Part shown: in pieces, positions 1-9,367 of the stretch | How the letters are laid out: each line of letters begins with the position of its first letter | Numbering within the stretch: the stretch's first letter is position 1 | IMG/VR virus record: IMGVR_UViG_2534682162_000003 | Location: 1 to 9,678 of that record | Strand: one strand, 5' to 3' | Length of the DNA stretch: 9,678 bases | From: a virus | Lineage: Duplodnaviria > Heunggongvirae > Uroviricota > Caudoviricetes | The notes under the pieces: generated by a model | What the model saw: only the letters and a program-made list of their open reading frames with translations | What the model was told of the DNA's origin: nothing | The model's database searches: none | Position numbers and translations under genes: made by a program

Positions 1-333
1 GCGAAAATCTGCACTCCGGGCGCGGATGGTGACAACATCCGGCGCGCCCCGGTGTTCAACCTCATCAACGGTAAATTTCCCTTTGCATACCAGGGCAAAA
101 CCTTTCCAGCCGATATACACCGTCAGGACAGCGCCACGAACCGGCAGCCCGACCTGCCCGTCGGCATCGTTCAGTTCAATATCAAGCTGGTCAGCCTCAA
201 AGCCCCGGTTATCCGTCAGGGTCATGCTCATCAGACGGTCGCTGATATTGCCGGTAATATCCCTGCTGTCGAGCATCAGCATGTAATCCGGCGTCAGCGT
301 ACTGCCTGCATCAAATGTCAGCGTATCCAGCAT
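1..333 (-). CDS. D: Tail/baseplate protein D (phage late control gene D family), N-terminal 111 codons only; gene continues past the window start
   Basis: Minus-strand frame is open from the ATG at 333..331 to position 1 (hand-translated: MLDTLTFDAGSTLTPDYMLMLDSRDITGNISDRLMSMTLTDNRGFEADQLDIELNDADGQVGLPVRGAVLTVYIGWKGF...). Its start overlaps the U stop as TAATG (331..335). Position after U matches the P2 order T-U-D. Family assignment is from memory of gpD-like N-termini, not a search. Confidence 0.75.
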   Translation of the reverse strand, partial: MLDTLTFDAGSTLTPDYMLMLDSRDITGNISDRLMSMTLTDNRGFEADQLDIELNDADGQVGLPVRGAVLTVYIGWKGFALVCKGKFTVDEVEHRGAPDVVTIRARSADFR

Positions 334-812
334 TATCCCGCCCCCGTCATACCCGTGAATTTAGTTGCCATACTGCCCGCCTTACCGATGAGCGATTCCG
401 CCTGTTTACCGATATCGCCATAAAGCGCGGCCAGTGATTCATCAACGCGGGTAAGTGACAGCGTAAAATCAATTTTCCGGGGTGTGCCGTCTGCAAAGAA
501 AATACTCCCTGTTTCACTCACCCTGCTGATGACATACATGCCGTAAATCATGCCTGTGCCATCCAGCAACGGCCACGCCCGGCCTTCCTCAGCCATCAGC
601 CTGAGCGTGGTCATCGTCAGCTTGCCGCCGGTCAGTTCGGGATAAAGCACACCGGCAAGCGTGATATTTTCCTCGCCAACACCGAGAAACTGGTAGGCAT
701 CCCGTTTACCGATACGGGAATTTGACGGCCAGCGATAATCTGATTCACGCTGCATGGTCTGGTGTGGCAGCGTCTGGCGCATAAAAACAAACATACCTAA
801 CGCGAGCATCAT
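333..812 (-). CDS. U: Tail protein U (P2 gpU-like)
   Basis: 159-aa ORF, the length I recall for P2 gpU. AGGAGG Shine-Dalgarno at 819..824 (minus strand), overlapping the end of T. Sits between T and D as in P2. Confidence 0.85.
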   Translation of the reverse strand: MMLALGMFVFMRQTLPHQTMQRESDYRWPSNSRIGKRDAYQFLGVGEENITLAGVLYPELTGGKLTMTTLRLMAEEGRAWPLLDGTGMIYGMYVISRVSETGSIFFADGTPRKIDFTLSLTRVDESLAALYGDIGKQAESLIGKAGSMATKFTGMTGAG

Positions 813-826
813 TTTTCGTCACCTCC

Positions 827-3274
827 TTAACCGTCATGCATCATGCTGGCACGGGCGCGCGCACGTTTATCCCGCTCGTATTTTTCGAGCGCATCCTGTA
901 ACTGGCGGTCGAGCTGAGTCCCCGGCGCAGTACCGCCCGTCAGACTGATGTGATATTCGTTTTTACTCTGGTCCACATAAGAGCGGCCAGCCGGTGCCGT
1001 AACCGGCTGATAAGCCTGATAGCCTGCATAAGAGCTGGTCGCCGGAATATAACCACCGGTGCCATACGTGGCGGCATGAGTTCTGGCGGCGGTCTGGTCA
1101 AGCGTGCCTGACTCTTTGTTGATAACACCGAGTTTTTCCAGTACCCAGTCAATACCGCTGCGCAGTTTGTTGAACGCATTAAGCGGCAGCATCAACGCGT
1201 CAGCCAGTGCCTGCCCGAACATGACGCCAGTATCACGGCAACGGTTCAGGGTGTCCTGGGTGGCTTTGACCGGGGCAATCAGGTTTTTAAACCACTGCCA
1301 CGCGGCCTGTAACTTTTCGCCCAGCCAGTCAAACACCGGCTTAAGTGGCGTGAACAGTTCCCCCACCGGCGCAAATGCCGCTTTCAGCCCTTCCATCACA
1401 CCGCCAAAGAATGCGCTGACAGGCTCCCAGTATTTACGGATAAGCAACGCCCCGGCGACAATGGCGGCCACCACGGCCACAACCGGCCAGCTAATCGCCC
1501 CGATGGCAGTCATAACAGCACTGCCAACCGTCGTGAAGATTGCCCCCATTGCGCCTGCTGCCACGATGATGGCATTGATGCCGGTGATAACCGGCCAGGC
1601 TACAAGACCAATGGCACCGATGATGCCAGTAAGCGCCAGCGCGCCACCGGCAATTAGGCCAATGGTTGACGCCAGTGATTTGTTTTTCTGGATCCAGCCG
1701 TCGAGTTTTAACACATACTTTGTGGCCGTCTGCGTGAGCTTACGCAGTGCGCCTTCCTGCTGGTCAAACAGGTCAGTCCCCACCGCTTCATAAGCGGACT
1801 GAAACTCCTTAAAGTCACCGCCGAGGTTGTCCTGCATGATTTTAACCAGCTCTTCCGTTTTACCGTCTGAGGCTTTCAGTGTGGCGGTCAGCTTATCCAG
1901 TTTTCCGCTTGCAGCCGCTGCCAGTAAAACGTTCGCTGATTTCAGGGCTTCCTCACCAAAAATGGTTTTAAGGTATTCCCCCTTCTGAGACGTTCCCAGC
2001 TTGTGTTTATCAAAGCTGGCCTGAATCTCTTTCAGAATGGTGAACAACGGACGCATATTTCCCTTTTTGTCCGAGGTTTTAACGCCAAGCTCTTTGAGTG
2101 CATCCCATGCTTTTCCAGTCGGTGCCTGTAATCGGGTGACAACGGCACTGCCACCCGTACCCGCCATTGACCCCCTGATGTTATTGTCATGCAGCACACC
2201 TGTCATGGCCGCTGCCTGTTCAAGACTTACACCTGCCGTCCTCGCAACCGGACCGAGGTAAGTCAGTGCATCACTGAGTCCCTGAAAATCAGCCGCCGAC
2301 TTATTCATCGTTGCCGACAACACGTCGCCCACATGGCTGACATCATCATTTGACAGTTGAAAGGATGCCTTAGTCCCCAGCAACAGTTGCGCGTTTTCTT
2401 CCATCGACCGCTGATTCGCCAGTGCCATATTCAGCGTGACCGGCGTTGCCGCCTGAATAGCCGCAGCATCTCCACCCGCTTTCGCAATGATAATCTGCGC
2501 ACCGGCCGCATCATCCGCTGAGGCGGCGGTATTGTCGCCGAGCTGGCGCGCCTGTTTGCGGAGCGCGGCCATTTCGGCGGAATCTTTTGCCACACCGAGC
2601 ACGGCCTGCAATTCTGAGTTTTTCTGCGCAAACTCATAACCGGGCATCAGCAGCTTAACTCCGGCCATCGTTCCCGCCGCCGCAATCCCCACACCGGCAG
2701 CGCCCACTGAGGCCATATTTCCGGCAAGTTCTTTTCCTGCCTGATAACGCTGTTTGACTGCGTTAAGTTTTGCCTGTTGTGCACTGACACGCGCCAGCGC
2801 GTCACGCTGCCGGTTAAGCTGTGCGGTGGTTTCACTGATACGGTTTTTCAGCCCCTGCTCATCATGTGCAAGATTGCGGGTATTAATTCCCACAGCGGCC
2901 AGTTCCCGCTGCTGGCGTTTAACGGAATCCGTCAGGCGGTTATATTTCGCCTGTAAGTCCTCCGCCGCACGCTTTGCGGATTCCAGCACTTTCGCCTGAG
3001 CACGGGTCGGACGTTCAGTGTTTTTAAACTGTGTGGCAAGTGCTTCGGCCTCCTGCCGTGCCTTTTCAAGTGCATGACCAGTCACGGCAAGCTGTGCACT
3101 GGTCTTGCGAAATCCCTCAATACGGGATGCGTGACCATTCAGCTCGCGCAGTGATTTTTGTGTTTCCCGGATATCCCCCGACAGCGACTTACTCGCTGTG
3201 CGGATGGATTTAAACGGGCGGGATGCCTGGTCAACAGCCCTGAGCAATACCTGTAATTTTACATTGTTACTCAT
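827..3274 (-). CDS. T: Tail tape measure protein (P2 gpT-like)
   Basis: 815-aa ORF. N-terminal region is charged and Ala/Gln/Arg-rich (coiled-coil character), followed by long Gly/Ala-rich hydrophobic segments (e.g. LTGIIGAIGLVAWPVITGINAIIVAAGAMGAIF...), typical of tape measure proteins. Located directly downstream of the E/E' chaperone pair. Confidence 0.9.
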   Translation of the reverse strand: MSNNVKLQVLLRAVDQASRPFKSIRTASKSLSGDIRETQKSLRELNGHASRIEGFRKTSAQLAVTGHALEKARQEAEALATQFKNTERPTRAQAKVLESAKRAAEDLQAKYNRLTDSVKRQQRELAAVGINTRNLAHDEQGLKNRISETTAQLNRQRDALARVSAQQAKLNAVKQRYQAGKELAGNMASVGAAGVGIAAAGTMAGVKLLMPGYEFAQKNSELQAVLGVAKDSAEMAALRKQARQLGDNTAASADDAAGAQIIIAKAGGDAAAIQAATPVTLNMALANQRSMEENAQLLLGTKASFQLSNDDVSHVGDVLSATMNKSAADFQGLSDALTYLGPVARTAGVSLEQAAAMTGVLHDNNIRGSMAGTGGSAVVTRLQAPTGKAWDALKELGVKTSDKKGNMRPLFTILKEIQASFDKHKLGTSQKGEYLKTIFGEEALKSANVLLAAAASGKLDKLTATLKASDGKTEELVKIMQDNLGGDFKEFQSAYEAVGTDLFDQQEGALRKLTQTATKYVLKLDGWIQKNKSLASTIGLIAGGALALTGIIGAIGLVAWPVITGINAIIVAAGAMGAIFTTVGSAVMTAIGAISWPVVAVVAAIVAGALLIRKYWEPVSAFFGGVMEGLKAAFAPVGELFTPLKPVFDWLGEKLQAAWQWFKNLIAPVKATQDTLNRCRDTGVMFGQALADALMLPLNAFNKLRSGIDWVLEKLGVINKESGTLDQTAARTHAATYGTGGYIPATSSYAGYQAYQPVTAPAGRSYVDQSKNEYHISLTGGTAPGTQLDRQLQDALEKYERDKRARARASMMHDG

Positions 3275-3694
3275 TCGTGTTTCCGCTTCGCTGGAGCGCC
3301 TTTTCGCGCCATGTGATGAGTTCGGTCAGGCTCATGGGATACAGTTCTGATGGCGGCCAGTGAAATATCACTGCCACATCCGCCATCAGGTCATCTACCG
3401 ACAGATTTTTCGGAAACGTCACTGCACCGAGTTCGGCGACAAAAAACCGACCACCTTACCGGCCAGTTCCACAAGGTCAGGCAGTTCCATCGCGGCGACT
3501 TCCTGCTCGGTCAGCATCGGTGCCGTCATGCGCGGCAGCACCTTAATAAGTGCATCGACTTCGGAGTGTGCGACCGAAGCCAGACTGACACCGCGAAGCG
3601 TCCCGGCATTAGGTTTCATCAGCGTGACCTGTTTGATAACCTGCTCACCACGTTTGACCGGATTTTCCAGGGTAATCACATTTTCTTTGTTCAT
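3267..3694 (-). CDS. E': Tail assembly chaperone E+E' fusion made by programmed -1 ribosomal frameshift
   Basis: Hand-translated: after a -1 slip on T TTT TTG, the frame stays open for 58 codons (VAELGAVTFPKNLSVDDLMADVAVIFHWPPSELYPMSLTELITWREKALQRSGNTNE) and ends at TAA 3269..3267, overlapping the T start codon (3274..3272). This is the P2 arrangement, analogous to lambda G/GT. Confidence 0.65.
3419..3694 (-). CDS. E: Tail assembly chaperone E (P2 gpE-like)
   Basis: 91-aa ORF between FII and T. Contains the T TTT TTG slippery heptamer near its 3' end. Confidence 0.85.
   Translation of the reverse strand: MNKENVITLENPVKRGEQVIKQVTLMKPNAGTLRGVSLASVAHSEVDALIKVLPRMTAPMLTEQEVAAMELPDLVELAGKVVGFLSPNSVQ
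3440..3446 (-). promoter_or_regulatory. -1 frameshift slippery heptamer T TTT TTG (minus strand)
   Basis: Plus strand 3440..3448 reads caaaaaacc, so the minus strand reads ggttttttg. In the E reading frame this gives GGT TTT TTG, the canonical X XXY YYZ layout. Confidence 0.65.
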
Positions 3695-3750: not shown

Positions 3751-4269
3751 TCACAGGCCGATATTGCGGCGGTGTTGCTCCAGCCGGTCGACGCCGTTCA
3801 CCTTCTCAATCATGTTGATGGTGTCGATTTCGACCAGCTCCTTACCGTCCATCGTCAGCCGGAAATAGGTGCAGACCACGGAGATTTTCGACTCGGTGTC
3901 TTCTCCCTGTTTGCCCTCGCCGGTGTCGATTTCTTTCTGACGTCCACGCATGACCACCTCGACGGCCACCGTTTCGCCGGTATCGTCACGCTGGTAAGAG
4001 CCTGCAAAACGAATCGGTACGGCATCCACACCGGTTGCGGCGTAAAGCTCCCAGATAACCGAATCCGGGAAGCCCCCGAGCGACCACTCCATTGACAGCG
4101 CATCGTCATCAAGGCCGAGGTCTACCGGTGCGCTGCCGTTCATCCCCGCACCGCGATAGTTTTCGAGCTTACGGGTCAGTTTTGGTAGCGTGACGGACTT
4201 CGCGACGCCCTGATAGCTGTAGCCGTTCAGAAAGACGTTCATTAACTTGAGTTTGCGCGGCATTGCCAT
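3751..4269 (-). CDS. FII: Tail tube protein (P2 gpFII-like)
   Basis: 172-aa ORF immediately downstream of the sheath gene. AGGAG Shine-Dalgarno at 4273..4277 (minus strand), overlapping the FI stop. Confidence 0.9.
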   Translation of the reverse strand: MAMPRKLKLMNVFLNGYSYQGVAKSVTLPKLTRKLENYRGAGMNGSAPVDLGLDDDALSMEWSLGGFPDSVIWELYAATGVDAVPIRFAGSYQRDDTGETVAVEVVMRGRQKEIDTGEGKQGEDTESKISVVCTYFRLTMDGKELVEIDTINMIEKVNGVDRLEQHRRNIGL

Positions 4270-4281
4270 CGGTCAGGCTCC

Positions 4282-5472
4282 TTAATTGCTGTTAACCGAG
4301 GTGACCAGATTTGCCAGGTATTTATCGGTAATACGCTGGCGCAGGGTCAGGTTTTCAAGAGGAGGCACCGGTGTATAGTCGTAGTCGATATACAGTTTTC
4401 CGGCCTTGAGGGTTTCCGCATCGTTGGATTCTTCGCTGAACCAGCAGGTCGCATCCACGATATAGCCGTTTGTTTTCAGCTCACGGAATTTGGCATTGAT
4501 GCCGTCAACGATGTCGCGAATCAGCGTTGCGGTGATGGGCTTGTCCACCGCCCACATGTGCGCCTCAGCCATCGTGTCGGCCAGCACCTGCGCGGTGCGG
4601 GTGTAGTTTTCAAAGAGGAACAGCGGGTCATCAGAGCAGGTACGGTTACCCCAGAAGCGGAAACCGTCGCGGCGAATCAGCGTAGTGACGCCTGACTCGT
4701 TAAGCAGGTCAGCATCGGTGCCGGACTCCTGCAAGTCCCAGAATACAGATGCGCTGATGCCGGTAACACCGTTCACCCCGACATTGGACAGCGTTTTATG
4801 CCAGCCCTGCTCCTGGTCGATTTTGGCACGCAGCCCCAGTGCACGGGCGGTTGCATACGCGGTGGCGGTGGTACTGGTGACCGTATCCCATGCGAGGAAA
4901 TCCGGCCAGATGACCATCAGCTCACGCTGGCTGAAATTCTGGCGGTAAGCTTTCACCTCGGAAATGGTTTTACAGCCCCATGCGCTGATATACCCGAAAG
5001 CGCGCAACTTCTGACAGACTGATGCCAGTGCAACAGCCACCTCTTTGGTATCCAGCCCCGGCACACCGAGAATACGCGGTTTAACACCGGTTACCGACTC
5101 CGCCGCCAGCAGGGCTTTCAGTCCGGTGTACTGGCCGTTTTCGTCGGTGGTGCCGATGATATTGGAAACGGTCTGCGCGAGTTTCGTTTCTTCGTCGTCG
5201 CCGGTTCCGTCTTCCACGCGCACGACAACGGTGACCGGTTTTGACTGGTCAGCGATGGCCTGCAACGATGCCGCCAGCGTGCCTTTTTTACCGGCCTTTG
5301 CAATGGCGCTCTGCACATTGGTAATCAGCACAGGTTTATTGAGGGGGAAGGTTTCCGCATCCGCATCGCTGGCCGTGCAGACCATGCCGACAATGGCAGT
5401 GGATACGGTGGAAATGACGCGGGTGCCGTCGTTAATCTCCAGCACCTGCACGCCGTGATGATAGTCACTCAT
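4282..5472 (-). CDS. FI: Contractile tail sheath protein (P2 gpFI-like)
   Basis: 396-aa ORF, first gene of the FI-FII-E-T-U-D block. GGAG Shine-Dalgarno at 5480..5483 (minus strand). Confidence 0.9.
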   Translation of the reverse strand: MSDYHHGVQVLEINDGTRVISTVSTAIVGMVCTASDADAETFPLNKPVLITNVQSAIAKAGKKGTLAASLQAIADQSKPVTVVVRVEDGTGDDEETKLAQTVSNIIGTTDENGQYTGLKALLAAESVTGVKPRILGVPGLDTKEVAVALASVCQKLRAFGYISAWGCKTISEVKAYRQNFSQRELMVIWPDFLAWDTVTSTTATAYATARALGLRAKIDQEQGWHKTLSNVGVNGVTGISASVFWDLQESGTDADLLNESGVTTLIRRDGFRFWGNRTCSDDPLFLFENYTRTAQVLADTMAEAHMWAVDKPITATLIRDIVDGINAKFRELKTNGYIVDATCWFSEESNDAETLKAGKLYIDYDYTPVPPLENLTLRQRITDKYLANLVTSVNSN

Positions 5473-5561
5473 CCGTTTAACTCCGTGGTTAATGGGTGCA
5501 ACTATTTTCTGTTGTGCAGTGCATGAGACGCTATTTGACCTGACTGGTCAGTGGATGAAAC
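5473..5561 (-). promoter_or_regulatory. Probable late promoter region for the FI-FII-E-T-U-D operon (P_F equivalent)
   Basis: About 90 bp lies between the minus-strand terminator and the FI start, and by synteny with P2 this is where the activator-dependent late promoter should be. I found no clean TGT-N12-ACA dyad by eye; only a short CTGAC-tg-GTCAG dyad at 5540..5551. Confidence 0.3.
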
Positions 5562-5596
5562 AACAGATAAAGAAAAGGCGGGCAATTCGCCCGCCT
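5562..5596 (-). terminator. Rho-independent terminator on the minus strand
   Basis: 8-bp GC-rich stem (5576..5583 aggcgggc pairing with 5589..5596 gcccgcct) with a 5-nt loop. On the minus strand it is followed by TTTCTTTATCTG (5575..5564). Confidence 0.55.
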
Positions 5597-5625
5597 GTCC
5601 TGATTTGTACTCACTCATTTTCCGC

Positions 5626-5660
5626 CTGACAATTTACATAGCCCAAATGCTATCAAATCT
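5626..5660 (+). promoter_or_regulatory. Candidate sigma70-type promoter for the cargo gene
   Basis: -35-like cTGACA at 5626..5631 and an extended -10-like TGcTATCAA at 5648..5656, with a 19-bp spacer (longer than optimal). Identified by eye only. Confidence 0.25.
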
Positions 5661-5692
5661 GACAGTCTGCTTTGAGCGAAAAGCAGACTGTC
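5661..5692. repeat. Perfect 13-bp inverted repeat with 6-nt spacer (GACAGTCTGCTTT gagcga AAAGCAGACTGTC)
   Basis: Read directly from the sequence: 5661..5673 is the exact reverse complement of 5680..5692. Lies about 115 bp upstream of the cargo start and just downstream of the candidate promoter. Confidence 0.6.
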
Positions 5693-5808
5693 ACGCGTTG
5701 AAGTTAATTGTATTACTTAGATAAACACTATCATTTTCCTGACGTTAAGTTGTATCTTTGATAGGATTAAAAAACGTATAGATAGCTTATGCTACTGAGG
5801 GAATAAAA

Positions 5809-6618
5809 ATGACGAAAATTAGTGAACGATGGAAGCACAATGGCATTACTGAAGGTTATTGCAATATTTGTGGGAAATATGGCTTGCTCACAAAAGATCA
5901 TGTTCCTCCAAAGTGCGCCATAACCTTAGGCCCTGTTTTGCAGAAAACAGTTAGCGAATTTTTTGGTATTCAGGAACCAGTTAAACCATTAAATGCTAAA
6001 AATGGCTCTTATTTCAGAACCATTTGCAGCCACTGTAACAATAAGGTATTAGGTGGGCTCGATGTTGCAATTGAAAATGTAACAAAGTCCTTTAAAGAAC
6101 AGTTAAGTCGATATATGAATGGTATGAATGTATATCCATTCATTAGAATACCTTTTGATAGCATATCTTTCACTAAGGCTATGATTGGGCACGTGCTATC
6201 AGCAACTTCAGTTGAAGATTGTAAAAAAGAACCCGTAGATAGCCCCTTCTATACACCTTTAAAGGATTATGTTTTGGGTAAAAATTCAAGTTTTGAGGAA
6301 ACTCATGATATTTACTACTGGTTTTACCCACACAGAATGCACATATCCGCTCAAAGTGTAGCATTTATGAACGAAGGACATGTGGCATTTATTTGTGCTT
6401 TACATTTTTTCCCTATCGGTTTTATTATCACAATGAAAAATGAAGGAACATACCCTGCCCACTCTACAAAATTAGAACTTGAAGATAAATTCCTTACATT
6501 TAATATGACCTCTATAAATTATGAGTATACGACATTTCCATTTGTAAATCTTAAGGGAAACCAAATGTATGCGATAAGCAACGGTCATACTTGTGTGAGT
6601 TATCCAATAATTAAGTGA
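5809..6618 (+). CDS. Hypothetical protein with N-terminal HNH-like zinc-finger nuclease motif; candidate anti-phage defence/exclusion cargo
   Basis: 269-aa ORF with a GAGGGA Shine-Dalgarno 6 nt upstream of the ATG. The translation contains C18-x2-C21, D30-H31-V-P-P and C74-S-H-C77-N-N-K80, matching the CxxC...DHxxP...CxxCNxxK pattern of HNH/His-Me finger nucleases. The remaining ~190 aa are aromatic-rich with no motif I recognise. Confidence 0.75.
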   Translation: MTKISERWKHNGITEGYCNICGKYGLLTKDHVPPKCAITLGPVLQKTVSEFFGIQEPVKPLNAKNGSYFRTICSHCNNKVLGGLDVAIENVTKSFKEQLSRYMNGMNVYPFIRIPFDSISFTKAMIGHVLSATSVEDCKKEPVDSPFYTPLKDYVLGKNSSFEETHDIYYWFYPHRMHISAQSVAFMNEGHVAFICALHFFPIGFIITMKNEGTYPAHSTKLELEDKFLTFNMTSINYEYTTFPFVNLKGNQMYAISNGHTCVSYPIIK

Positions 6619-6672
6619 CGGCTAAATCATACAATCTACGCATGTTCACTTTCTACATATACCATCTATAAT

Positions 6673-6722
6673 GTCCGCTGTTGGCACAGAGCGGACTGTC
6701 AGATCAGGCTTTACTCTGTGCC
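6673..6722. repeat. Overlapping inverted repeats between the cargo stop and the G stop
   Basis: GTCCGCT (6673..6679) pairs with AGCGGAC (6690..6696); GGCACAGAG (6683..6691) pairs with CTCTGTGCC (6714..6722). Neither is followed by a clean U-tract on either strand. Confidence 0.4.
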
Positions 6723-6757
6723 ATAGATATGTAAGCTCACACCAGAGCTCATACAAC

Positions 6758-7285
6758 TTATTGCGGCATTTCCGGCCATTCGGGATTTGCAGGATCCACA
6801 CGACTGACCAGAACGCTGTAGCGTTCCCATCTTTCCAGTCTGCTACGCTCCTCCTCTGTTGCCATATTCAGCCTGACAGCGCGCTCCAGCGGCAAAATCA
6901 CGGATTCAGCATCTGCAAGAAGTCTGGCTTTCCTGTTTTCTGCCTGCTGTTGCAATTCCTCTGCCGTATAAATTCGTTTGATCACTGTGCCATCCTTAAA
7001 CATCCAGTTCCCTGAAATATCCGCCCGTCGGTTAGCAGTAATATCCGCCACTTCAACAACACTTAATCCATCCGGTCTGATAGCTGTCACATCCTTTTCC
7101 ACATAGCGGATGATATTATCTTTGTCGTACGCTATTTTTATCGTGTCATCAGCAAAATACTTTTGTTCTTCGTACCAGTTCTTACCATCTTCTGAAAAAA
7201 ACCAGACAACATCAAAGTCCTTTGTCAATTGATATTGTTCAACCGTTTTTGGATTACCCGCCGTAATATTTTTTAAATGCTGCAT
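6758..7285 (-). CDS. G: Tail fiber assembly chaperone (P2 gpG-like)
   Basis: 175-aa ORF starting 3 nt after the H stop. C-terminal half is GC-rich and conserved-looking; N-terminal half is AT-rich. Confidence 0.85.
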
Positions 7286-7288
7286 AAA

Positions 7289-9367
7289 TTATACCTGCGC
7301 CACGTTATACCATGTCCCGTTAATGTATTTCTGCACCGGTCTGTAATATACGCCACCAATGTTATCGGCAGAGTTTGAGCCGGTATCCTGAACAATAATG
7401 CCGGTATATACACACCCGGACGGTGCCTGATGTGTCCATGTCATGCCATTGTTCGCAGGTTTGTATGTGGCGGCACCACCAAGCCGGATATCCCGGACAT
7501 AGCGGGAGTCAAAATTGCTGAAATTTGATGGTATCACCTGCCCGGTAACCCGTAGTGCATCAGACTTAAGCGTCATCAGGTCTTTTGTTGTGCTGCCAGA
7601 CCTGATGCGCCATTTAAAATATTCATTGCCATTATCACCAGTTTCAAACCACATGTATGAGTCAGAATCAGCATCTGAATCATTTTTAAATCCAATTTTC
7701 GCCCAGTCAGTGTTTCTTTCCCAAATCAGGAAGGCATCATTGATAAATTTTATGCTGCCTGACATGCTTCCGCCTGATAATGCCAGAGCAAGAATATCCG
7801 CAGGTGTTGGCTTTCGTGATGTGGTATAAAACTCTGACCAGTCAGCCTCAAATCCATACCCATCACGTGCCGACCTGTAAAAAATCCCCCTGTTTTTATA
7901 ATCCACAAGAAACTGCATTGCCGGACAACTTCCCTCACCCGTGTAAAAATGCAGCACCATTTTTGATGCTCCGCCATCCTGTGCACAATAAGCACCACTG
8001 TCCCAGTTCCATCCTACCGCTTTATTATTTGCAACCGTATTTCCTGTTTTCCCTAATGCAAAAGCCGGTTGCTTATTTTTCGTATTGTAGTCGCGTCGCC
8101 AGCCCGGCGCATAATCAGCTCCGTGATTGATATACGTGAATTGCGCACTGGTGGTACCACCACCGCTTGATGTACTCGGAGTGGTCACACGAATGGTCAT
8201 TGCAGCTTTAACGCCCATAACCTCAATCACGCAACCTGCAAGATGAATAGTCCCACAGTCAGTATCGGTAATAATTTTGTTATTACCGTATGACCAGGAA
8301 CACTTGCACATCCAGTAGGGATGATTAAAGGCTCCCTGAGACTCTAGCCAGTCAATAAACTGAGCGGTTGTCCAGTTTCCGGCGTCAGTGCTCAAAGCAC
8401 CGCTATAAGCACGACAGGCACCGATATTTTTCGTGAAAGTATCCTTTCCCGGAATATCCGCACCGTTCTGATCTTTCTGAAGACGTTTTTCAGCATTGTC
8501 ATAGGCAGACTTCACCGCTTTTGGTGTTGCCGCAAGCGTTTCAGAATCGCTGTTGGTGGCGCTACTGAGCTGGACAAGACCTTTTCGCGCTGTGGTGGCA
8601 TCCTGTGCAGTGTATTTCCCGTTAGCAAGGTCATACGCTGTCTTAACCGCCTTTGGCGTTGCCGCAAGCGTTTCAGAATCGCTGTTGGTGACGCTACTTA
8701 GCTGGACAAGGCCTTTTCGCGCGGTGGTGGCGTCCTGTGCGGTATATTTCCCGTTAGCAAGGTCATACGCGGCCTTTACCGCTTTCGGCGTTGCGGCCAG
8801 TGTTTCAGACGTGCTGTTGGTCGCACTGCTTAACTGAGTAAAACCTTTTGCGGTCAGCGAGGCGTCCGGGTGACGTCGTGACTGTTCGTGCTCTGCAATT
8901 TTGTCATCAACGTAATCCTGCGTCGCCATCACCGTTGTGGTGTCAATGGTCAGCTCCACTGAGGCCACACTGCTGACGATGATGACCATACGGCAGGTCT
9001 GCGAACGCCCTGAGCCTTCGGCAAGGGCAGGCTTATAACTTTCGGCCATGTTCGCCACGGCAATTAACGTTCCCGCATCATCGTACAGGCCAAGCTCACG
9101 CATCCAGAAACCGCCCACCTCCGGCGGAATAACCAGCTCTGCGATAATATAATTACTGTTTCGTTTGTCCTGGCTGATTTTGTTCAGCGCATGTCGCCAG
9201 ACTTCGTGGATAAGCCCGGTCTGTCCGGCATCCGGGACAGGCAATTTACCACCGCCATCCCCGACGGCCATCGTGGTAATGTTGACCTTCCGCCCTCCCG
9301 GCGCGGTTGCCGCTGCCAGCTTTGCTGCACCGGCAGTGGTGATAACGGTTCTGAATTTTGTGCTCAT
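7289..9367 (-). CDS. H: Tail fiber protein (P2 gpH-like)
   Basis: 692-aa ORF. The N-terminus (MSTKFRTVITTAGAAKLAAATAPGG...) resembles what I recall of P2 gpH. Contains three tandem 44-aa repeats. The C-terminal ~350 aa are lower in GC and Cys/Trp/Tyr-rich, consistent with a receptor-binding domain. Confidence 0.9.
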   Translation of the reverse strand: MSTKFRTVITTAGAAKLAAATAPGGRKVNITTMAVGDGGGKLPVPDAGQTGLIHEVWRHALNKISQDKRNSNYIIAELVIPPEVGGFWMRELGLYDDAGTLIAVANMAESYKPALAEGSGRSQTCRMVIIVSSVASVELTIDTTTVMATQDYVDDKIAEHEQSRRHPDASLTAKGFTQLSSATNSTSETLAATPKAVKAAYDLANGKYTAQDATTARKGLVQLSSVTNSDSETLAATPKAVKTAYDLANGKYTAQDATTARKGLVQLSSATNSDSETLAATPKAVKSAYDNAEKRLQKDQNGADIPGKDTFTKNIGACRAYSGALSTDAGNWTTAQFIDWLESQGAFNHPYWMCKCSWSYGNNKIITDTDCGTIHLAGCVIEVMGVKAAMTIRVTTPSTSSGGGTTSAQFTYINHGADYAPGWRRDYNTKNKQPAFALGKTGNTVANNKAVGWNWDSGAYCAQDGGASKMVLHFYTGEGSCPAMQFLVDYKNRGIFYRSARDGYGFEADWSEFYTTSRKPTPADILALALSGGSMSGSIKFINDAFLIWERNTDWAKIGFKNDSDADSDSYMWFETGDNGNEYFKWRIRSGSTTKDLMTLKSDALRVTGQVIPSNFSNFDSRYVRDIRLGGAATYKPANNGMTWTHQAPSGCVYTGIIVQDTGSNSADNIGGVYYRPVQKYINGTWYNVAQV
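8490..8880. repeat. Tandem 132-bp repeats (three copies plus a partial) inside H
   Basis: Repeat units begin at about 8526, 8658 and 8790 (period 132 bp), with a degenerate partial copy near 8490. They encode the 44-aa repeat LSSxTNSxSETLAATPKAVKxAYDLANGKYTAQDATTARKG. Confidence 0.85.

Follow-up and report, generated by a model that had tools for sequence, protein, structure and literature searches.

A horizontally acquired single-gene cargo module in the Z/fun slot of a P2-like prophage, encoding a candidate nuclease-type immunity protein

The cargo island between genes G and FI

We analysed a stretch of DNA of 9,678 nucleotides (hereafter the window) from the IMG/VR virus record IMGVR_UViG_2534682162_000003, which comprises the tail module of a P2-like (Peduovirus) prophage seen on the strand opposite to the tail genes. 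Between the tail-fibre assembly gene G and the sheath gene FI lies an AT-rich island with one open reading frame (ORF), the cargo gene. An initial annotation of the window had described this 269-aa ORF as running on the opposite strand to all of the flanking structural genes and as carrying its own Shine-Dalgarno sequence, and our gene call agrees on both counts, with the ORF on the + strand, all flanking structural genes on the - strand and the sequence GAGGG 7 nt 5' of the ATG. The island is best explained as a horizontally acquired single-gene cargo module which occupies the Z/fun slot of the prophage. We estimate a probability of approximately 50% that the cargo protein is a stand-alone immunity protein of the nuclease type, an activity which is predicted from its sequence. 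The coordinates of all features are given in Table 1.

The initial annotation had also placed a low-GC segment of approximately 1.2 kb exactly at this junction. The dip in GC was borne out, with the insert having a z score of -5.0 in comparison to 128 other windows of 984 nt (mean 0.535, sd 0.038, minimum 0.432), while the limits of the segment had been drawn too widely. We aligned the junctions with those of P2, P2-EC58, P2-EC31 and pro147 and found that the foreign DNA is confined to positions 5689..6672, because 5473..5688 and 6673..6757 align as conserved P2 backbone. This backbone part holds the pF promoter region (annotated in P2), a terminator-like hairpin and the arms of a 32-nt inverted repeat. 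The GC content at third codon positions (GC3) was 0.685 for FI versus 0.30 for the cargo ORF. Among seven enterobacterial alleles of the cargo gene dN/dS ranged from 0.03 to 0.19, and the ORF is therefore a real gene under purifying selection.

In the annotation of P2 the G/FI junction houses fun(Z), on the opposite strand to the tail genes, just as the initial annotation had stated. Its further statement that this junction is a defence hotspot of P2-like prophages also agrees with the literature: the fun locus has been described as the second defence-enriched hotspot of P2, where three new systems were found (Vassallo et al. 2022, PMC9519451), and two later papers name Z/fun. The analysis of Rousset et al. 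2022 was restricted to the old/tin hotspot. Genes of untested function at hotspots often prove to be defensive, and in the one test which has been reported for the hotspots of P4, 6 of 8 unknown loci were active.

The slot holds different cargo in different phages: fun(Z) in P2, Shedu in P2-EC31, ORF1 in P2-EC58, a 299-aa ORF in OU784549 and the cargo gene of the window in pro147. The comparison of this junction among P2-like phages, which the initial annotation had proposed as a check, was thus positive, the cargo gene alternating with genes of known defence function (P2-EC31 Shedu SduA and P2 Fun(Z)). ORF1 of P2-EC31, deposited as a “putative lysogenic conversion protein” (AJ512677; contig L003, 457-1542), is Shedu SduA (PADLOC, E = 9e-163), and this record was deposited approximately 15 years before Shedu was described. 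ORF1 of P2-EC58 had only a weak match in PADLOC, to a DRT-associated protein, and no PADLOC model matched Fun(Z).

P2 Fun(Z) (NP_046777.1), the product of the T5-exclusion gene, is the closest counterpart of the cargo protein by position. The two genes are non-essential and AT-rich, share the slot between G and FI with the same inverted repeats and have the same orientation, both pointing towards G (convergent). Fun(Z) differs in its length of 528 aa and in having no HNH-like motif, and the two proteins show no similarity (BLASTP E = 0.32); we therefore rejected kinship between them and regard them as analogues by position only. Shedu SduA of P2-EC31 resembles the proposed role of the cargo protein in being a single-gene, nuclease-based system in an identical hairpin-bounded position. 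However, its nuclease is of the DUF4263 PD-(D/E)xK type whereas the module in the cargo protein is HNH-like, and no homology was detected between them.

Mobility of the hairpin-to-hairpin module

The cargo gene is carried by a module which runs from one boundary hairpin to a second, related one. Copies of this module with >99% identity lie in IncF plasmids and in two prophages, one P2-like and the other lambdoid, and the DNA around them is unrelated. Individual copies correspond to window positions 5664..6696 (contig L052, 6002-7033), 5665..6696 (Shigella sonnei p59, NZ_CP099771; L054, 6966-7997) and 5665..6692 (Klebsiella pneumoniae, NZ_CP023918; L055, 6966-7993). The identical protein, WP_000161640.1, was found in the P2 slot in the window and in Escherichia coli S10; in a lambdoid prophage of the porcine enterotoxigenic E. 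coli (ETEC) strain UMNK88, between hokD and DUF977/ydaT-type genes; and on IncF conjugative plasmids of E. coli, S. sonnei and Klebsiella, beside IS26 and mph(A)/erm(B) resistance genes. In both NZ_CP099771 and NZ_CP023918 the gene adjoins IS26 and an mph(A)/mrx(A)/erm(B) macrolide-resistance region. Overall, the cargo gene was present in 52 PLSDB plasmids, of which 44 are conjugative, and in 141 of 5,426 complete E. coli genomes (~2.6%), while approximately 1,117 genomes match some portion of the P2 junction query (5473..6757). The cargo gene is spreading as a passenger of antibiotic-resistance plasmids.

A possible source of the plasmid copies is seen in E. coli S10 (NZ_CP010229; contig L053, 1-4224 and beyond), where a P2-like remnant containing T, E, FII, FI and the cargo gene breaks off precisely at the right hairpin, where DUF2254-betT follows. 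Because the plasmids share this cargo/DUF2254-betT junction, their copies probably derive from a P2-like prophage fragment of the kind found in S10. The same types of hairpin also enclose DUF2254-betT on the plasmids (L054, 7974-11670; L055, up to 14416) and a 246-aa ORF in Erwinia aeris (contig L016, 11260-12252). The Erwinia contig also has a left-type hairpin 15 nt beyond a right-type one, like the junction of two cassettes. These further hairpin-bounded segments suggest the existence of cassette arrays distinct from the attC arrays of integrons. For the cassette with the cargo gene, the hairpins act like break points of recombination. In pro147 the allele of the cargo gene, which has 94% identity at the nucleotide level, is missing the left hairpin together with ~70 nt around it (L001, ~3183-3173, compared to window 5656-5722), and since pro147 keeps the gene in this state the left hairpin is not needed to maintain it. 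The hairpin-bounded module provides a handle on the swapping of cargo between unrelated mobile elements.

When inserted between conserved genes of a phage, a free-standing HNH gene is classically one for a homing endonuclease, and the cargo gene, with its HNH-like motif and its position, resembles such genes. Together with the sharp ends of the module and its near-identity in three unrelated replicon types, this would suit a selfish nuclease, either a free-standing HNH homing endonuclease or a mobiliser of its own hairpin cassette, which spreads by cutting empty sites. We consider this very improbable. The same hairpins bound fun(Z), Shedu, DUF2254-betT and the Erwinia 246-aa ORF where this gene is not present, and the hairpins therefore do not depend on the cargo gene. 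Relatives of the gene have attC or other boundaries and lie in scattered insertion contexts with no single cognate site, and Pfam found no NUMOD, IENR1 or helix-turn-helix (HTH) module in the cargo protein or 49 members of its family. The only carriers among 50,697 phage records, moreover, were two temperate phages of the P2-like kind, and no virulent phage had the family gene.

The cargo protein, its family and a candidate nuclease module

The cargo protein belongs to phrog_21495, a family of unknown function in PHROGs, and its exact sequence is present on at least 1,000 contigs under the names “chaperonin”, “metal-binding protein” or hypothetical protein. The “chaperonin” label, which is attached to many members at NCBI, was backed by none of our searches and seems to be an annotation error which has been propagated. 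When 1.84 billion cluster representatives were searched with a profile, 1,763 clusters (50% identity) were returned at E ≤ 1e-3, including 338 at E ≤ 1e-30, and nearly all of these were 260-290 aa in length and matched over their full length; a second large search with a broader profile did not add any named relatives. Pfam and NCBIfam gave no significant match to the native cargo protein, sequence and profile searches of the PDB returned nothing, and a literature search for the protein as WP_000161640, A0A0L7ACS6, phrog_21495 or AKH49325 found no mention of it. The initial annotation had named beforehand, as a finding that would speak against defence, a clear kinship of the 269-aa protein with a structural or lysis protein, and no such homology was seen. 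The possibility of a signal peptide or membrane protein was rejected, no hydrophobic segment being visible in the sequence. The AlphaFold model of the protein has a mean predicted local distance difference test score (pLDDT) of 85.7 and a predicted template modelling score (pTM) of 0.87. The C-terminal domain (~170 residues) of this confident model matches no solved fold, and confidence is low around the family-specific insertion (block-mean pLDDT of 59-71 over residues 31-70).

We measured conservation in an alignment of 64 sequences which reaches down to ~20% identity. C21, H31, C73, C76, N77, W171, P202 and P244 were invariant, and C18, D30, P33, P34, L81, G82, D85, G127 and H128 were conserved in at least 90% of sequences. 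Within these positions C18xxC21...D30-H31-V-P-P...C73xxC76-N77 has the pattern of a zinc-stabilised HNH/His-Me finger, and the two CxxC pairs (C18/C21 and C73/C76) bracket the core in register with the cysteines of PtuB. In the AlphaFold model D30-H31 ends a predicted strand (residues 24-32), a second strand follows (67-73) and C76-N77 lies in a helix (74-81), which is the strand-strand-helix order expected of the beta-beta-alpha-metal fold. The residues which define an HNH module are thus in place, with a His which closes strand 1 and is preceded by Asp and an Asn on the following helix.

The same arrangement, CxxC...[DE]H.xP...CxxCN with four zinc cysteines, is shared by HNH_5 (PF14279), HNH (PF01844), Endonuclease_7 (PF02945) and PtuB. 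The cargo protein differs from PtuB and the HNH families in having a 21-residue insertion between the strands, a fused 170-residue domain of unrecognised fold and sub-threshold scores, and whereas Septu PtuB is encoded with the ATPase PtuA, the cargo family has no PtuA-type partner. Four results support the view that the N-terminal residues may form an HNH/His-Me finger carrying the 21-residue insertion, with every Pfam score below threshold. One is the predicted strand-strand-helix order given above. Weak matches to HNH_5 were found in 36 of 49 family members. In an hhalign comparison with a PtuB which is encoded beside a family member, YCxxC, [DE]H.xPK and IC..CN were in register, separated by the 21-residue insertion, with an E value of 0.0047 and a probability of only 7.5%. 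After the insertion was spliced out, 9 of 10 diverse members matched most of HNH_5 (E = 7e-5 to 0.02) and several also matched HNH and Endonuclease_7, in a test which is partly circular as the splice site was borrowed from the HNH alignment.

It should be noted that the low hhalign probability and the circularity of the splice test weigh against a nuclease-type immunity protein, as do the results which follow. All HNH matches of the family lie below the Pfam gathering score: HNH_5 reached 11.6 bits for the native protein and 23.2 bits at best after splicing compared to a cut-off of 27.5, and HNH PF01844 reached at most 17.8 bits compared to 21.4. No HNH protein was retrieved in fold searches, with Foldseek finding nothing in the PDB and BFVD at E ≤ 0.001; this is weak evidence either way, because small beta-beta-alpha modules within a larger query are easily missed. 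The cargo protein had no matches to the 5,027 HMMs of PADLOC-DB 2.0.0, including the candidate PDC and HEC models, and 49 family members gave only single weak matches in PADLOC (E > 0.007). The defence-profile and structure checks which had been proposed for the 269-aa protein thus gave no match in PADLOC 2.0.0 or among solved structures, and NCBIfam had none either. In E. coli, Shigella and Klebsiella many copies are carried as passengers by plasmid resistance regions with IS26 at their borders, so that the abundance of copies need not reflect selection for the gene. A promoter scan gave no sigma-70-like promoter above its threshold 5' of the cargo ORF on the + strand; the sole candidate would be a weak one, CTGACG (5739..5744) and TAGGAT (5762..5767) separated by 17 nt, with 8 of 12 matches. 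The AT-rich cargo gene may also be silenced.

Several of these points would suit an accessory cargo with no part in immunity, for example a regulator or a factor of lysogenic conversion, in which the four cysteines form a structural zinc ribbon and the likeness to HNH is a relic or a coincidence. The sub-threshold scores and the failure to retrieve an HNH fold are consistent with this, the database names are merely “metal-binding protein” or “chaperonin”, and the Z/fun slot and other hotspots also house non-defence cargo, with toxins, tail-fibre genes and invertases among the cargo of P2 hotspots. Some relatives lie in contexts without defence genes, for example beside Tc toxin genes in Photorhabdus and within the his region in Motilimonas. 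We nevertheless consider non-immune cargo unlikely. The strictest conservation at ~20% identity extends beyond the four cysteines to the catalytic-type residues D30-H31 and N77, and the gene alternates with Shedu and Fun(Z) in one slot. It is also a recurrent integron cassette, and ~18% of unknown cassettes which were tested were anti-phage. Finally, it is repeatedly co-located with restriction-modification (R-M), Septu, Shedu, AbiU2, SIR2 and OLD-like genes.

Relatives of the cargo gene are widespread, being found in many Vibrio, Pseudomonas, Serratia and other genomes. The gene is solitary: across 37 genomes the 277 neighbouring ORFs fell into 246 clusters with no conserved partner, and the largest neighbour cluster was a serine recombinase found at 8 loci in varying positions. 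A two-gene system was rejected, since no neighbour was conserved in these genomes. The family gene had a lower GC content than the surrounding locus in 36 of the 37. In at least three lineages the gene is a single-gene integron cassette. In Vibrio cholerae it lies between VCR-like repeats (a contig of 969 bp), and the 90% cluster of its protein is common to six Vibrio species; in V. barjaei it has TAACAAACGC... directly after the gene; and in Plesiomonas it is one unit of an array in which a 139-nt repeat occurs nine times at a spacing of 615-996 bp and which also has HEPN_AbiU2 and SduA_C cassettes. The copy in the window is bounded by hairpins, not by attC sites.

The family recurs beside defence genes and in defence hotspots, an observation which is qualitative. 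A type I R-M operon of Thiomicrorhabdus cannonii (contig L048, 5248-12264) has a distant relative between its hsdS and hsdR genes, in an insertion which also includes a 189-aa ORF without a Pfam match. In Pseudomonas koreensis a relative is immediately upstream of a complete Septu PtuA/PtuB pair, and other relatives adjoin an Eco57I-like methylase (L036), a 1,278-aa SIR2 protein (L030) and a GajA/OLD-like ATPase (L039) or lie in a region of insertion sequence (IS) elements, toxin-antitoxin genes and DruA (L059). Among prophages, a filamentous one has a relative at its cargo end, a P2-like remnant in Serratia has one after gpD, and a lambda-like prophage in Enterobacter has one beside the terminase gene. 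A terminase-associated HNH protein was considered for the last of these and rejected, as this copy is on the opposite strand to the lambda-type terminase genes beside it and is 269 aa in length.

This carriage by prophages, plasmids, integron arrays and serine-recombinase-flanked islands could also point to a weapon or stabiliser in conflicts between mobile elements, directed against P4-type satellites, prophages or plasmids, or to an addiction-type toxin, and integron arrays are rich in stabilising toxin systems. Such a role seems to us decidedly unlikely. For an addiction toxin, no antitoxin-like partner is conserved in the 37 genomes and a lone constitutive toxin would be lethal. A weapon between elements overlaps strongly with an immunity nuclease, as the mechanism is shared and only the target differs.

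A defence function of the cargo protein is suggested by this context together with the sub-threshold nuclease motif. If it is an immunity nuclease, the product would be a cytoplasmic protein of two parts, an N-terminal HNH module with a four-cysteine zinc site and a D-H...N catalytic set, and a C-terminal domain of unrecognised fold. The protein would be made in the lysogen and act against phages or more broadly against mobile elements, with the HNH module cutting nucleic acid and the C-terminal domain either sensing an invader-specific cue or restraining the enzyme. Invader DNA could be the target, as for type IV restriction enzymes, or else host or phage nucleic acid, possibly RNA, with abortive infection as the outcome. 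Type IV restriction enzymes with an HNH domain, such as McrA, unite a nuclease and a recognition domain in one polypeptide without a methylase or immunity partner and are often prophage-borne, and the cargo protein resembles them as a single polypeptide with an HNH-like module and a second, putative recognition domain. For Septu, whose HNH protein is PtuB, cleavage of a tRNA has been reported (PMC13096335).

Sirona and Nemetona are anti-phage integron cassettes of V. cholerae N16961 which are distantly related to His-Me/HNH endonucleases, and Sirona is found in 34 genera of Pseudomonadota (Darracq et al., bioRxiv 10.1101/2024.07.02.601686). The cargo family is similar to them in being widespread and in comprising single-gene Vibrio integron cassettes, a comparison which was made by description only. 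No protein named from N16961 appeared in two homologue searches with the cargo protein, and NinG was hit by none of the 49 family members in a Pfam scan. The family has no name in PADLOC, NCBIfam or the literature which we searched, and we do not fully guarantee that it is undescribed. A single-gene candidate with an HNH effector at a P2 hotspot is of a kind which is already known; the family itself and its second domain would be the new part.

More tentatively, and with some doubt on our part, the whole family, with the cargo protein as its E. coli representative, may comprise single-protein immune nucleases across Gammaproteobacteria (at least 1,700 clusters at 50% identity) which combine an insertion-bearing His-Me finger with a sensor of novel fold, and of which the enterobacterial hairpin cassette hops between P2-like phages, lambdoid prophages and IncF plasmids in an exchange system separate from integrons. 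Should the cargo protein prove to be an immunity nuclease, the defence repertoire would gain a compact system of one 0.8-kb gene whose recognition domain has not been seen before, a function would be provided for a family present in ~2.6% of complete E. coli genomes, and the Z/fun slot would have a further validated cargo beside Fun(Z), Shedu and the three systems of Vassallo et al. As the carriers of the module include epidemic azithromycin-resistance Shigella plasmids, a phage-defence gene would then be co-selected with antibiotic resistance. If it is not defensive, the gene would be a warning about reasoning by association at hotspots.

Signals around the island and the tail genes

In the Z-region entries AJ512677 and AJ512683 of GenBank the 32-nt repeats which flank the slot are labelled “left/right inverted repeat”, and the element that forms the left arm in the window is the “right inverted repeat” there. 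A perfect 14-nt palindrome (arms 5660..5673 and 5680..5693) encloses the stem of the left hairpin, and the hairpin after the stop codon of the cargo gene has no T run. An Rfam search of the island gave only a chance match to a snoRNA (E = 0.5).

Outside the insert, between the cargo gene and the pF/FI promoter region, there is a strong terminator-like hairpin just upstream of this promoter region, and it is kept in P2, P2-EC58, P2-EC31 and pro147. It would stop leftward read-through from the H-G operon, which runs antisense through the cargo gene. No terminator as good as this one was found after G.

Table 1. Positions of the cargo gene, its flanking signals and the tail genes in the window
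Feature	Position	Strand	Remarks
Cargo ORF	5809..6618	+	269 aa, ATG start; identical to WP_000161640.1; GC 0.351, GC3 0.30
N-terminal HNH/His-Me-finger-like zinc module	5848..6063	+	Residues 14-85: C18, C21, D30-H31-V-P-P, C73, C76, N77, D85
Family-specific 21-residue insertion	5917..5979	+	Residues 37-57, between HNH-core strands; gap in hhalign versus PtuB
C-terminal alpha/beta domain	6106..6615	+	~Residues 100-269; conserved G127, H128, W171, Y173, F200, P202, P244
Upstream leader of cargo gene	5689..5808	+	Shine-Dalgarno GAGGG at 5797..5801
Foreign insert	5689..6672		984 bp; GC 0.345
Interval of the initial annotation	5597..6757		GC 0.363
Mobile module	5665..6696	+	1,032 bp, from hairpin GTCTGCTTTGAGCGAAAAGCAGAC to hairpin GTCCGCTGTTGGCACAGAGCGGAC
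Left arm of 32-nt inverted repeat flanking Z/fun slot	5657..5688		ATCTGACAGTCTGCTTTGAGCGAAAAGCAGAC; 81% complementary to 6673..6704
Right arm of 32-nt inverted repeat	6673..6704		P2 backbone resumes here; from alignment and inverted-repeat pair
Left boundary hairpin (24 nt)	5665..5688		GTCTGCTTTGAGCGAAAAGCAGAC; all non-P2 module copies begin here
Right boundary hairpin (24 nt)	6673..6696		GTCCGCTGTTGGCACAGAGCGGAC; 55 nt past stop codon
Terminator-like GC-rich hairpin and T run	5576..5596	-	9-pair stem, 7 GC pairs, tail TTTCTTTATC
U	333..812	-	Compared with P2, pro147 and RefSeq annotation
T	827..3274	-	Compared with P2, pro147 and RefSeq annotation
E	3419..3694	-	Compared with P2, pro147 and RefSeq annotation; listed as E/E' in gene order
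FII	3751..4269	-	Compared with P2, pro147 and RefSeq annotation
FI (sheath)	4282..5472	-	Compared with P2, pro147 and RefSeq annotation
G (tail-fibre assembly)	6758..7285	-	Compared with P2, pro147 and RefSeq annotation
H (tail fibre)	7289..9367	-	Compared with P2, pro147 and RefSeq annotation

The comparison with P2, pro147 and RefSeq annotation confirmed the identities of the tail genes in Table 1. The start of gene I also lies within the window, on the - strand. FI and FII have 99-100% identity to the P2 and pro147 proteins, and G has ~75%. A second, weaker dip in GC (0.37-0.46) was found at window positions 6900-8100; because this dip covers G and the 3' half of H, low GC is not exclusive to the island. 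The low-GC stretch of G and H and the divergence of G are consistent with a host-range module (tail-fibre tip and assembly) which has been exchanged beside the cargo slot. Within the H protein (~8480-8850, - strand) there are three tandem repeats of ~45 residues (...KGLVQLSS.TNSDSETLAATPKAVK.AYDLANGKYTAQDATTAR...), which are visible in the translation and as repeated antisense ORFs.

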